This document shows, in pieces, positions 9,629 to 11,246 of a DNA stretch of 27,850 nt. This DNA is from a virus. Lineage: Duplodnaviria > Heunggongvirae > Uroviricota > Caudoviricetes. The notes beneath the pieces are model-generated. The model was given only the letters and a program-made list of their open reading frames with translations, was not told the DNA's origin and made no database searches. The DNA lies in the IMG/VR virus record IMGVR_UViG_2734482779_000004, positions 1 to 27,850 of that record; one strand, given 5' to 3'. Position 1 is the first letter of the stretch, and the number at the start of each line of letters is the position of its first letter. Made by a program: the position numbers and the translations under genes.

Positions 9629-9871
9629 TTATGCTCCGGTGGTGAACAGGTCTAACGCTTCCTTCGATTTACGCACCGCTTCGAATGTGCGGATCGTGAT
9701 ATCTGAATTAGCGCCGCCTGACTGGAAGTGAATTTTGAATAGCTCAAGCTTCAGCTCGTCAGTGCCAATGAACTGAAATGCTTCTTCTGCGGCTGCGTTC
9801 TGGTTCATGACCAGCTTGTAAATCTCTAACTGGAATTTCTGTTCTTCAGTCATGGGAATAATCTCTGCCAT
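9629..9871 (-). CDS. Hypothetical phage protein
   Basis: 80-aa ORF ending 3 nt before the terS start, same orientation. No recognisable motif. Confidence 0.4.
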   Translation of the reverse strand: MAEIIPMTEEQKFQLEIYKLVMNQNAAAEEAFQFIGTDELKLELFKIHFQSGGANSDITIRTFEAVRKSKEALDLFTTGA

Positions 9872-9974
9872 TGTTGGCTCCGTTTATCCGTTAAAAGGGA
9901 TATCAGTTAAGTTATCCCGTGTAGGGTATAAGCCATTATCAAAGCCACTCTGTATGGAATGGCTTTTGTAATAA

Positions 9975-10355
9975 CTACTGTTCGCTTAGCTTCTGCTTCA
10001 GCAAGTAACCTTCGAGCATCCAGATTTTGTTTACAGCATTTTGCCGGGCAATCTTCCGACCAATTTCTGCATCAAAGTTTTCCGGGCTTGCACAGGCGCT
10101 CTCTCCGGTGACGGTGAAGCCATTCTTCAGCACCAGTACGCAGAAAGTGAGCAACTTCAATGGTGATAAATCACGATCGCCTTCTTCTGGTTTTTCCCTG
10201 CCACAATATTCGTTGCTGGAAATGGCACCATTTCGTCCATCATAAGCAGTAAAGTAATGCTCGCTTTTAATCACGTCTTCGATGTGCTGCGGGGTGATTC
10301 GCGGTGCCGTTTGGCCTTTCTCAACGATTTCTTTTTCGATTTGCTGGTCGTTCAT
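9975..10355 (-). CDS. Hypothetical phage protein (conserved lambdoid accessory protein)
   Basis: 126-aa ORF. The LTFCVLVLKNGFTVTGESACASPENFDAEIGRKIARQNA segment looks like a family common in enterobacterial prophages, but the family name is not recalled with certainty. Confidence 0.45.
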   Translation of the reverse strand: MNDQQIEKEIVEKGQTAPRITPQHIEDVIKSEHYFTAYDGRNGAISSNEYCGREKPEEGDRDLSPLKLLTFCVLVLKNGFTVTGESACASPENFDAEIGRKIARQNAVNKIWMLEGYLLKQKLSEQ

Positions 10356-10542
10356 AATTATGACCCTGTGGAGTGGTTGCTTGATTAGGATGTCTTTCCA
10401 TCAGTCCGCCACCACAAAGAATCTTTTTTGCCATAAGGCTGGAGGTTCATCTTTCAGTGGCTGCCAGTGTTATTTCCCCACTTACTGGCTTTGGTTGCTT
10501 CGTGGTACTGCCGTAATGCAAAAACTGGATTAACCTGCGAAA

Positions 10543-11073
10543 TCACACCATTCCGGGCAAATACATTTGCACTTCATTTGCCGCTCTCTCACGTGCAACA
10601 TGAAGCAATCTTTTTCGCCCACCAACGCCCCACTTAGCCATTTGGCTTGCGCACTGGCTTATCGCTTTGGTTTCAGTATTGATGATGTGATCGATTCTAT
10701 TCAGACGGGACATTGCGCCAACGCCGAGACGGACGACCGTTTTGAAAACTTCATAAACTTCGATTTCAAATTCCGGCTTAATCCATGCTGCATATCTGAT
10801 TGCCAGAAGTTCAACACCCCACACACCTGGTTCTGCACCACCTTTGATTATTTTAAGTGGTTGAATTTGTTCCAAAGTGCTTTTTTGCACTTTGGCCTCC
10901 AGTGCTTTTATGAAGCGTTTTATCTGCGCGCTACGCAAAAACTGGCTTGGGCGCTGTTGCTCTGTAGCCTCTCCATTTGCAACTGCTGCTGCATGGAGAT
11001 CGTTTAAGTTGTAGCGTCCATCCTCATCAACACGAACGGACACACCATTGACAATAACTATTTGGTGCTTCAT
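10543..11073 (-). CDS. KilA-N domain protein
   Basis: 176 aa. The N-terminal IVIVNGVSVRVDEDGRYNLNDLHAA pattern is the recognised KilA-N signature; the C-terminal 70 aa are not recognised. Confidence 0.6.
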   Translation of the reverse strand: MKHQIVIVNGVSVRVDEDGRYNLNDLHAAAVANGEATEQQRPSQFLRSAQIKRFIKALEAKVQKSTLEQIQPLKIIKGGAEPGVWGVELLAIRYAAWIKPEFEIEVYEVFKTVVRLGVGAMSRLNRIDHIINTETKAISQCASQMAKWGVGGRKRLLHVARERAANEVQMYLPGMV

Positions 11074-11220
11074 CGGTGATTACCTTTTAGTGATGAACCT
11101 TGTCACACAGGATTCCGGCCCACAGAAAGGCACCGATTACCAAACCGGCATCCTCAAGGGTCATCCTGAAAGGTTCTGTGTTCATAACTCGCGCGTGTGA
11201 AGCGCGTTTACTGCGGACAT

Positions 11221-11246
11221 AAAAAAGCCCCGCTTCTGCGAGGCAT
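11221..11246 (-). terminator. Rho-independent terminator downstream of Rz
   Basis: Minus strand GCCTCGC-AGAA-GCGGGGC hairpin (one mismatch) followed by TTTTTTAT, about 40 nt after the Rz stop. Confidence 0.4.

Follow-up and report, generated by a model that had tools for sequence, protein, structure and literature searches.

The window analyzed here is a 27,850-nt stretch of DNA, positions 1 to 27,850 of the IMG/VR virus record IMGVR_UViG_2734482779_000004. Its gene order is Q, PR', tRNA-Asn, tRNA-Thr, holin, endolysin, Rz/Rz1, a terminator, a block of accessory genes, terS, terL, and portal, and the Sf6 annotation has the same layout, with PR', qut, and tR'. All genes of the accessory block lie on the minus strand, and the block and its boundaries comprise the following features:

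11244-11227, minus strand: intrinsic terminator after Rz/Rz1, GCCTCGCAGAAGCGGGGC, then T6
11185-11087, minus strand: 32-aa hydrophobic ORF, phrog_16173
11071..11181, minus strand: structured leader of the slot-1 gene, 111 nt
11073-10543, minus strand: slot-1 cargo, encoding a 176-aa KilA-N protein
10542-10356: untranslated gap of 187 nt between the KilA-N gene and the 126-aa ORF
10389..10516, minus strand: segment A (linker A), 128 nt, non-coding, between slot 1 and slot 2
9975..10388, minus strand: slot-2 cassette, the acb4 homolog with 33 nt of its own 5' sequence
10355-9975, minus strand: 126-aa ORF, the coding sequence of the acb4 homolog
9872..9974, minus strand: segment B (linker B), the DUF2560 leader and an untranslated gap of 103 nt
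9871-9629, minus strand: 80-aa DUF2560 protein (P22 orf80, HK620 hkbM, Sf6 gene 67)
9626-9186, minus strand: terS, the first packaging gene, which closes the block on its downstream side (phrog_309 terminase small subunit, E 9.7e-68)

The four ORFs, both gaps, the terminator after Rz, and the two hairpins of the shorter gap had been reported in an initial annotation of this DNA, and we recovered each of them at identical positions. That annotation also regarded the junction as a variable, moron-type accessory site rather than conserved core, and called for its comparison across relatives; the related loci bear this out. The comparison loci are the 80 best of 574 matches, all with an identical DUF2560, and cargo frequencies are therefore only indicative: among 70 related IMG/VR loci with identical DUF2560, 5 have the KilA-N gene, 11 have the 126-aa gene, and 1 has both, with many alternative cargo genes found between Rz and DUF2560. 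Slot 2 (65 loci) is empty in 41, and otherwise holds Acb4 (11), DUF551 (5), or other cargo (8). Among named phages, UPF_BP1 lacks exactly window positions 10388-9976, the cassette of the 126-aa gene, and the KilA-N gene is missing from Sf6 and Huey; not one phage record spans as much as 80% of 9100-11800. The cassette breakpoints fall at 10516, 10389/10388, and 9975. The upstream edge of slot 1 is the Rz/Rz1 terminator, whose 7-bp stem (GCCTCGC/GCGGGGC, 6 GC pairs) with a 4-nt loop and a T6 tail at 11226-11221 is kept in related loci, the loop alone being variable.

The morons of HK97/HK022-type lambdoid phages, as conceived by Juhala and Hendrix, are cassettes inserted between conserved late genes. 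The cassettes described here resemble them in being present or absent as units and in that several have their own terminator, such as the GGTCGCTCAGGCGGCC-T6 terminator 3' of the DUF551, 80-aa, and 61-aa cargo. However, the window cassettes have no recognizable promoter of their own, and dedicated non-coding linkers, themselves conserved, separate them from the adjacent genes.

These linkers lie in the two long gaps in which promoters had been suspected. The gaps contain no sigma-70-like site in a consensus scan; they are conserved linker and leader elements, present in at least 160 phages, of 128 nt and about 103 nt, which flank a cassette slot. Linker A is found in 65 of the 70 loci at 93-99% identity, whatever genes flank it on either side; 163 phage records also have it, among them P22, HK620, Sf6, CUS-3, epsilon34, HK544, and mEp235. 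No special fold was detected in it (z -0.88), nor any unusual folding in the 187-nt gap (z = -0.46). Small ORFs within linker A (21-37 aa) were rejected as genes, given variants with a stop codon (TAT to TAA), a lost ATG, or an extra A in an A6 run. Linker B is present in all loci as two alleles, 88% identical where slot 2 is empty and 97% where it is filled. The 103-nt gap folds with an MFE of -29.8 kcal/mol (z = -5.25; none of 200 shuffles was as good) and contains hairpins at 9972-9935 and 9918-9897 as well as the Shine-Dalgarno (SD) sequence of DUF2560 (GGAG, 9881-9878). Hairpin 1 covaries, with 5 pairs changed on both sides and 97% pairing as against 39-52% when the partners are slid; hairpin 2 is invariant and hence uninformative on covariation. 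Both hairpins lie 3' of acb4. The empty-slot allele of hairpin 1 has no U-tract, hairpin 2 is followed by no more than U4, and neither passes a terminator scan.

The two proteins downstream of the KilA-N gene, previously left as unassigned hypothetical proteins, both match Pfam families. The 80-aa protein matches PF10834/DUF2560 (E 2.6e-42, 143 bits, threshold 25), and the 126-aa protein matches PF13876 (Phage_gp49_66) over the entire profile (1-82 of 82; E 3.4e-35, 120.8 bits, cut-off 27). PF13876 defines Acb4, a sponge for cyclic dinucleotides that forms tetramers and blocks CBASS; its published set comprises 1,331 homologs, and 3'3'-cGAMP was bound by eight of eight purified ones (Chang et al., bioRxiv 10.1101/2024.12.30.630793). 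Table S3 of that set includes Sf6 Q716B1 (gene 66; 124 of 126 residues the same as in the window protein) and E. coli A0A2A2C3I0, each with two differences in 126 positions. The Sf6 gene is likewise flanked by linker A, linker B, and DUF2560, and the DNA is 98% identical over window 9631-10516; the Sf6 locus differs in having the small gene 65 and no KilA-N gene in slot 1, and an extra gene 68 before terS. By sequence, the 126-aa protein is a member of the published Acb4 family and the ortholog of Sf6 gene 66. It should therefore act as a tetrameric cyclic-dinucleotide sponge directed against CBASS, and its family membership makes the gene one of counter-defense, not exclusion. This is a re-annotation within a known family and no new system. 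DNA homologous to the gene is carried by 527 of 5,426 complete E. coli genomes. RefSeq labels it "Gp49 family protein" or "hypothetical," and the label in phage Huey is "anti-CRISPR." We set the Huey label aside as evidence; because the two Huey proteins belong to PF13876 and PF11195 (Tad2-like), it reads as a generic anti-defense category.

The ligand range of the 126-aa protein is uncertain, since most contact residues of the SPO1 Acb4 (PDB 9E4W) differ in it. The two proteins share PF13876, the core beta-sheet and helix motif, and the GR motif, and phmmer aligns window residues 69-111 with chain residues 38-80 (E 0.0068). However, they are 28% identical in alignment, the SPO1 protein has 96 aa and the window protein 126 aa with a longer N-terminus, and of the ten SPO1 contact residues only F48, F62, and I66 are identical. 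The guanine-specific E49 is replaced by T, and Y57, T70, K81, and K36 by A, I, M, and L, respectively, while V56 corresponds to C (C88) and N63 to D (D95). The setting is also different, with the window gene residing in the late operon of a temperate phage with a Gram-negative host. More similar is the N4 homolog (gp48 in EF056009.1; "N4 Gp49" in the Pfam name), which, across almost the whole length, is 48% identical in alignment (42% by tblastn). At E49 and V56 it carries the replacements seen in the window protein, at K36, Y57, T70, and K81 it too departs from SPO1, and it has the window residues at most pocket positions that differ from SPO1. The N4 protein binds c-di-AMP with a Kd of 111 nM and is sensed by the PanDA guard system, for which it is the necessary and sufficient trigger. 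In contrast to the window protein, it comes from a virulent schitovirus and has a C-terminal Cys-rich tail.

The divergence of the pocket, with five of the ten SPO1 contact residues differing outright and two more substituted, could be read as a sign that the protein retains the Acb4 fold but is no nucleotide sponge in its own clade; it might, for example, bind RNA via its dsRBD-like core or use its 30-residue-longer N-terminus in another role, and extensions on some Acb4 homologs may indeed add functions (Chang et al., bioRxiv 10.1101/2024.12.30.630793). We consider this very improbable. The eight homologs that bound cGAMP are diverse, the nanomolar c-di-AMP sponge of N4 agrees with the window protein at most of the positions in question (T81, C88, F80, F94), and the core motif NGF.V.G.SAC..P..F....GR....NA..KIW.LEGYLL is intact in the window protein.

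The 176-aa product of slot 1 matches Pfam KilA-N (PF04383; E 7.4e-18, 64.8 bits, threshold 23.8) over residues 10-113 only (11046-10735), where it is 33% identical to P1 KilA over the domain, and phrog_129 ("transcriptional regulator") with an E of 1.9e-59. Its C-terminal half, previously described as unassigned, indeed has no Pfam match, but it appears to contain a divergent ORF11CD3-like helical module (about residues 124-175, 10704-10549). Since direct detection failed, PF10549 (ORF11CD3) giving no match to the C-termini of 14 family members at E up to 10, this link was made by hhalign and intermediate sequences. Alignment with the ORF11CD3 modules of same-slot Rha/KilA-N proteins gave a probability of 79% (E 1.6e-5, 50 columns). 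The intermediates P0223 and P0225 are 43-47% identical to the C-terminus of the window protein and match the whole PF10549 profile (1-54; E 0.0015-0.0025, 18-19 bits), under its cut-off of 25. The C-termini of the KilA-N family also display invariant motifs, with a terminal motif Q..[IL]PG that is common to the same-slot proteins. An AF2 model computed from a 25-sequence alignment (identity at least 67%) was too poor for a fold search (pLDDT 52, pTM 0.30), and a PDB sequence search with this protein yielded nothing useful.

Judged by its place and predicted domain layout, the KilA-N protein corresponds to P22 Rha (ORF201) in position and architecture. The latter and the HK620/CUS-3-like Rha proteins also occupy the slot right after the Rz terminator, are followed by linker A, have the same structured leader (matched by our covariance model R1 at L085:856-967), and combine an N-terminal DNA-binding domain with a C-terminal ORF11CD3 module. 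They differ in that the N-terminal domain is Phage_pRha (PF09669) rather than KilA-N and in that the window C-terminus is too diverged for a direct PF10549 match. A tentative but plausible reading, which concerns the KilA-N gene only and is compatible with the sponge explanation of its neighbor, is that this protein is a phage developmental regulator or antirepressor, like the label of P22 Rha; with KilA-N it would contact DNA and with the C-terminal module a partner, and the sponge gene would play no part in this. The DNA-binding nature of the KilA-N fold and the label of phrog_129 point in this direction, as do the RefSeq label "anti-repressor" of P22 rha in the same position and the ORF11CD3 C-terminus and leader common to Rha and three KilA-N types. 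Henthorn and Friedman reportedly observed in 1995 that the rha products of P22 and phi80 inhibit phage growth in IHF-deficient hosts. On the other hand, slot 1 elsewhere holds a Tad2-like sponge or nothing, and whatever function it encodes is therefore dispensable. In the literature searched, we found no functional study of ORF11CD3 or rha/IHF, of Sf6 gene 66, or of DUF2560.

In the leader of the KilA-N gene, an invariant CCUUUC (11173-11168) pairs with the KilA-N SD AAAGG (11087-11083), a pairing that is included in the MFE fold of the window leader. RNAalifold applied to two leader lineages, which are 70% identical, finds compensatory changes in 9 of 38 pairs, and among 86 sources the covariance model R1 finds the leader 62 times, ahead of genes for Rha (including P22 rha), three KilA-N types, and an HNH protein. 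In the model-fitted alignment, 13 pairs are altered on both sides, and 91% of cells are paired as against 45-55% with the partners slid. Rfam 15 returns only two tRNAs for the whole window at the gathering score and nothing for 9500-11400, the stretch with the leader and both linkers, up to an E of 1. We propose the leader as a candidate translational control element that would mask the ribosome-binding site of the KilA-N gene.

The 32-aa ORF, which the initial annotation listed in the block, sits entirely within this leader and is probably its by-product. Its start ATG is CTG in four close relatives (L012, L024, L062, and L063), the leader type with 70% identity keeps the RNA structure but, with indels of 4 nt and 1 nt, has no homologous ORF, and longer annotated versions are read-throughs of the terminator hairpin. 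That it encodes a real small membrane protein, acting in lysis, in exclusion, or as a leader peptide that opens the KilA-N ribosome-binding site, is rather unlikely, though several observations favor it: the ORF matches phrog_16173 (E 2e-23), has one predicted hydrophobic helix, and ends with a stop codon that overlaps the KilA-N SD in a geometry suited to coupling, and what few substitutions separate close relatives are silent, falling in third codon positions (GTA/GTG/GTT, GAA/GAG). However, these variable positions can also be accounted for as loop or wobble sites of the RNA fold, and there is no convincing SD 5' of the ATG.

As to expression, PR' at 12988-12959 has an 11/12 match. A consensus scan of the intergenic regions 11300-11060, 10600-10340, and 10000-9860 found no sigma-70-like promoter of at least 9/12, nor any of at least 8/12 or with an extended -10, although non-consensus promoters may exist. 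Two 9/12 matches are both inside the KilA-N ORF, and the regional count of five matches compares with 4.9 expected from shuffles. Q-dependent late transcription is the likeliest route for the block, because its genes are co-oriented with the late operon and have no recognizable promoter of their own. The region is very probably the late-operon accessory junction of a P22-like (Sf6/CUS-3-type Lederbergvirus) prophage, with two slots between conserved non-coding linkers, acb4 in slot 2, and, most likely, Q-dependent late transcription.

The initial annotation had instead stressed KilA-N proteins as exclusion factors. In its full form, this would make the block a lysogenic-conversion moron set, in which the KilA-N protein, alone or together with the hydrophobic ORF, is made by the repressed prophage and either excludes superinfecting phages or protects the host. 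In its favor, the junction does carry exchangeable cargo, with terminator-like hairpins 3' of it, and Kapi1_043, at the position of the KilA-N gene, is reported as the most highly expressed prophage gene in Kapi1 lysogens; the consensus scan finds no promoter for that gene either. P1 KilA, itself a KilA-N protein, is lethal to the host when expressed. Nevertheless, we regard exclusion as improbable. Up to an E of 0.1, the four proteins have no match among the PADLOC-DB defense models (an NCBIfam scan of the four was also of no use), and the three intergenic regions have no sigma-70-like promoter. The KilA-N ribosome-binding site is predicted to be sequestered in a conserved leader, which suggests restrained rather than constitutive expression. 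Moreover, such cargo as can be identified in this and sister phages is anti-defense (Acb4, Tad2-like), to the benefit of the phage, not the lysogen. The Tad2-like proteins Huey CDS0064 and Kapi1_043 occupy slot 1 in sister Lederbergviruses, with the same linkers and DUF2560 adjoining; like the slot-2 gene of the window, they belong to a nucleotide-sponge family of counter-defense, but they are unrelated to it (PF11195) and absent from the window. Of the earlier interpretation, the variable cargo junction stands, whereas the emphasis on KilA-N exclusion, the idea of promoters in the gaps, and a coding role for the 32-aa ORF are not supported.

In the late-operon reading, RNA polymerase modified by Q at PR' would read through the terminators and transcribe the block. 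Slot 1 would then provide, behind its structured leader, the DNA-binding KilA-N protein with its ORF11CD3-like module, and the Acb4 homolog of slot 2 would, by family membership, assemble into a tetramer. This tetramer would sequester the cyclic dinucleotides made by host CD-NTases, namely 3'3'-cGAMP, cUA, and, as in the N4 homolog, probably c-di-AMP, such that the CBASS effectors stay inactive and the phage cycle can be completed. A broader proposition, which we regard as unlikely but worth stating, is that the lysis-terminase junction of P22-like and HK97-like enterobacterial phages is a dedicated two-slot counter-defense site. Its borders may be conserved non-coding elements, namely the Rz terminator together with the leader that would sequester the SD, linker A with its 128 nt, and, in linker B, the hairpin that covaries. 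In that case, the KilA-N/Rha-ORF11CD3 proteins, DUF2560, DUF551, and micro-proteins of 23 to 89 aa would be new anti-defense or defense-sensing factors that could be discovered through their association with Acb4 and Tad2, and the leader would be a new class of cis-regulatory RNA gating their translation.

The Acb4-type identification changes how these prophages are read in studies of the CBASS/PanDA arms race, and Sf6 and its relatives offer a temperate-phage system for tests of Acb4. Similarly, the slot-and-linker architecture, with its two sponge families (Acb4 and Tad2-like), supplies a compact shortlist of co-resident genes for counter-defense tests. The leader that is predicted to mask the Rha/KilA-N ribosome-binding site is a candidate regulatory RNA absent from Rfam and may be relevant to the older finding that expression of rha has to be kept in check.

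The last gene of the block, DUF2560, has a stop codon 2 nt ahead of the terS ATG and is probably translationally coupled to terS. Its AF2 model (pLDDT 74) has four predicted helices; no structural neighbor and no functional lead emerged, the best matches having an E of 2.5 in the PDB and 6e-3 in BFVD, the latter to an uncharacterized protein, and a PDB sequence search gave nothing useful. The family comprises only 90 clusters, every one of them enterobacterial; 158 phage records contain it, and HK97-like phages retain remnants of 28 codons.

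The layout and sequences of this region are those of a P22-like prophage (Lederbergvirus), most closely related to Sf6, Huey, and CUS-3. The features described in the initial annotation were all recovered on the minus strand where it had placed them. In transcription order, together with recurring non-coding elements, they are:

13484-12966, minus strand: Q
12988-12959, minus strand: PR'-like promoter (11/12 matches)
following, minus strand: tRNA-Asn, tRNA-Thr, holin, endolysin, and Rz/Rz1, in that order
11244-11227 plus T6, minus strand: intrinsic terminator after Rz/Rz1
11185-11087, minus strand: 32-aa ORF
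11181-11071, minus strand: conserved structured leader, 111 nt; copies in comparison loci L085 (P22; 856-967), L045 (726-834 and 3596-3708), and L037 (750-861)
11073-10543, minus strand: 176-aa KilA-N protein
following, minus strand: untranslated gap of 187 nt, up to the 126-aa ORF
10516-10389, minus strand: segment A, 128 nt; 93-99% identity in 65/70 loci (from the best 80 of 574 matches)
10355-9975, minus strand: 126-aa ORF
following, minus strand: untranslated gap of 103 nt, up to the 80-aa ORF
9975-9872, minus strand: segment B, the DUF2560 leader with two hairpins; in all loci (best 80 of 574 matches)
9871-9629, minus strand: 80-aa ORF
following, minus strand: terS (2 nt past the 80-aa ORF stop codon), terL, and portal

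The genes for tRNA-Thr(tgt) and tRNA-Asn(gtt) (12747-12902), between the late promoter and holin, are likewise annotated in Sf6 and Kapi1.

On sequence grounds, the 126-aa protein is a secure member of the Acb4 (PF13876) family. It matches the Pfam family PF13876, "Phage protein (N4 Gp49/phage Sf6 gene 66)" (E 3.4e-35); its sole meaningful match in a sequence search of the PDB (E 0.0068) is 9E4W, the anti-CBASS 4 (Acb4) protein from Bacillus phage SPO1; the Sf6 protein Q716B1, which differs from it at 2 of 126 residues, is listed in Table S3 of Chang et al. (bioRxiv 10.1101/2024.12.30.630793), who defined PF13876 as the Acb4 family; and it resembles the N4 homologue (48% identity in alignment, 42% by tblastn). 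In that study, SPO1 Acb4 was shown to be a sponge that, as a tetramer, takes up four 3'3'-cGAMP molecules, and all eight purified homologues bound cGAMP, with only those from phages of Gram-negative hosts also binding c-di-AMP (10.1101/2024.12.30.630793). The N4 homologue bound c-di-AMP at 111 nM and is both necessary and sufficient as a trigger of the PanDA guard system (10.64898/2026.08.10.743972). Among the SPO1 ligand-contact positions, F48, F62, and I66 are kept in the window protein, whereas E49, Y57, T70, K81, and K36 are changed, and at several of these diverged positions it has residues in common with N4. We strongly infer that this protein is a cyclic-nucleotide sponge, a predicted activity that is firmer than its exact ligand range. 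Its prevalence is appreciable: among 5,426 complete E. coli genomes, 527 carry homologous DNA, in every case labelled "Gp49 family protein". By tblastn, phage Bas96 (PQ850623.1, 33566-33865) has a 42%-identical Acb4-like stretch where two features are annotated "hypothetical protein". According to the PanDA preprint (10.64898/2026.08.10.743972), Bas96 has no Acb4 of its own; this gene may be split or inactive.

Sister phages carry comparable cargo between the Rz terminator and segment A, an interval that we call slot 1. The Huey gene in this slot (L001:997-1497) encodes a protein with a Tad2-like domain (PF11195, E 1.7e-24), and the Huey record labels both this protein and its Acb4 homologue "anti-CRISPR protein". 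A homologue, Kapi1_043 (L087:2501-3022), occupies the same slot, where the window has the KilA-N gene. Tad2 and Acb4 domains are frequently fused in other phages (10.1101/2025.07.12.664507). The initial annotation had instead pointed to the presence of KilA-N domains in phage-encoded exclusion proteins. Given the Acb4 homologue here, the Tad2-like proteins of Huey and Kapi1, and the failure of any block protein to match the PADLOC defence models, the identifiable cargo of the junction is phage counter-defence and not host-protective exclusion. Its most notable function lies with a published anti-CBASS sponge family, not with exclusion by KilA-N, although the view of the junction as a real cargo site holds.

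The KilA-N protein itself is the positional and architectural counterpart of P22 Rha. Its Pfam match is limited to residues 10-113, yet across Enterobacterales its two halves are equally conserved; an AF2 model was unusable (pLDDT 52). In related loci, its position is taken by Rha proteins or two other KilA-N types, whose C-termini match PF10549 (ORF11CD3) and share the same terminal Q..[IL]PG motif. Profile-profile comparison of the KilA-N family C-terminus with these same-position modules gave a probability of 79% (E 1.6e-5, 50 columns). When 1.8 billion representatives were searched with the C-terminus, just 17 relatives came up, two of which (43-47% identical) match PF10549 end to end, slightly below threshold. 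As a direct PF10549 match to the window protein is lacking, we consider its C-terminal half very probably a divergent ORF11CD3-like module, short of a proven PF10549 member.

The wider organization of the junction was examined by mapping the window onto IMG/VR loci anchored on DUF2560 (the best 80 of 574 matches); because all of these have an identical DUF2560 and are not an unbiased sample, the cargo counts are indicative only. Across this set, segments A and B recur regardless of the surrounding genes, delimiting slot 1 and a second slot between them. The cargo of slot 1 is drawn, in varying combinations, from a 50-aa Sf6-gene-65-like peptide and Rha, KilA-N, Tad2-like, and T5orf172 proteins (Rha in 33 loci, the window's KilA-N type in 5, other KilA-N types in 6 and 4, Tad2-like in 4). 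Slot 2, in the 65 loci with segment A, is empty in 41; its contents elsewhere are Acb4 (11 loci), DUF551 (5 loci), or else a trypsin-like protease or other small genes (8 loci). Only one locus among these best 80 matches, L067, combines the window's KilA-N type with Acb4, and UPF_BP1 has this KilA-N gene while lacking exactly 10388-9976. The initial interpretation is partly supported: comparison across relatives bears out a real, moron-type cargo junction, and neither the KilA-N gene nor the acb4 homologue is conserved core. Since segments A and B recur in related loci, the "unusually long untranslated gaps" noted earlier are mostly conserved linkers rather than empty spacers. Segment A occurs, again at 93-99% identity, in 163 phage records, including the podoviruses P22, HK620, Sf6, CUS-3, and epsilon34 and the HK97-like siphoviruses HK544, HK106, and mEp235; no conserved ORF, special fold, or promoter was found in its 128 nt, and it may act as a recombination anchor. 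We could not find this slot-and-linker architecture described before.

Several slot-2 variants deserve mention. In L025, L059, and L074, the roughly 100 nt from A to B hold just a 23-aa micro-ORF (MSAEGFNNPSKFRDEWDSSVKSK) behind a strong AAGGAG ribosome-binding site. One canonical terminator (GGTCGCTCAGGCGGCC then T6) recurs just upstream of segment B in L011, L016, L021, L032, and others, where each of the DUF551, 80-aa, and 61-aa cargoes brings it along; the acb4 cassette is without it. P22 slot 2 (L085:1629-2334; NC_002371.2 40308-41013) has about 600 nt with "orf25" as sole annotated feature; it contains a reverse-strand 104-aa ORF (L085 2081-1767) adjoining a bidirectional-looking terminator and a forward 62-aa ORF (L085 2065-2253), whose start, MALTDKQEMFCHEYL..NATQAA, resembles a remnant of a terminase small-subunit N-terminus.

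The two hairpins reported in the 103-nt gap are well supported, as it folds far better than shuffles (z -5.25); folding of the 187-nt gap is not unusual (z -0.46). At least three versions of the hairpin 1 sequence (9972-9935) occur, connected by compensatory changes (e.g., AAAGCC/GGCUUU versus GAGACC/GGUCUC), with 5 pairs altered on both sides and 97% of cells paired, against 39-52% with partners slid. The hairpin 1 allele tracks slot 2, being 88% identical to the window where the slot is empty and 97% where filled. A plain terminator was rejected because the empty-slot allele has no U-tract. Hairpin 2 is invariant across loci and hence uninformative as to covariation.

A second RNA element precedes the slot-1 gene. 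A covariance model of the 111-nt leader, built from two lineages, found 62 copies in 86 sources, 5' of Rha, all three KilA-N types, an HNH gene, and P22 rha. Pairing extends to 91% of cells in the model-fitted alignment and drops to 45-55% when partners are slid; 13 pairs are altered on both sides. The invariant CCUUUC (11173-11168) of the outer helix pairs with the KilA-N Shine-Dalgarno AAAGG (11087-11083), also in the window's own MFE structure. We read this leader as a candidate translational control element; neither it nor hairpin 1 is in Rfam, and we could not find such a Shine-Dalgarno-sequestering leader described. The 32-aa ORF lies wholly inside the leader, and the second lineage, 70% identical, keeps the sequence blocks and pairings; it carries indels of 4 nt and 1 nt and lacks the ORF. 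This ORF is probably not a gene, though it may be a lineage-specific leader peptide. In P22 (L085:896-967), the GTG annotated as the rha (ORF201) start falls inside the leader; the leader model would instead have rha begin 23 codons downstream, at the ATG of MNELIANH (L085:965). Weak model matches (22-26 bits, E ~1e-3 to 1e-2) between Q and holin in five loci (L012:1514-1620, L017:2209-2315, L056:2372-2478, L066:1832-1938, L083:1770-1876) could be fortuitous, or the late-promoter region could hold a distantly related leader.

Promoter mapping in the two gaps had been proposed as a check. A scan of the three intergenic regions found no sigma-70-like match at 9/12, nor at 8/12, whether or not an extended -10 was required. 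Given this, the co-orientation of all block genes with the late operon, and the 2-nt DUF2560-terS spacing, the simplest model is that Q-modified polymerase from PR' would read through the terminators into the block. Kapi1_043, however, is reported to have the highest expression of all Kapi1 genes in lysogens, whatever the condition (PMC12922286), which warns by analogy that junction cargo can reach high levels in lysogens even where no consensus promoter is recognisable.

The 80-aa protein is DUF2560 (P22 orf80/HK620 hkbM/Sf6 gene 67; E 2.6e-42), a narrow enterobacterial family (90 clusters, 158 phage records) with a predicted four-helical fold (pLDDT 74), for which no structural neighbour was found in the PDB or BFVD. 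HK97-like siphoviruses (HK97, HK544, HK106, mEpX2, mEp235; L004:1445-1582) retain just its first 27-28 codons, 93-96% identical, which implies a putative recombination joint within DUF2560 at the lysis/packaging boundary.
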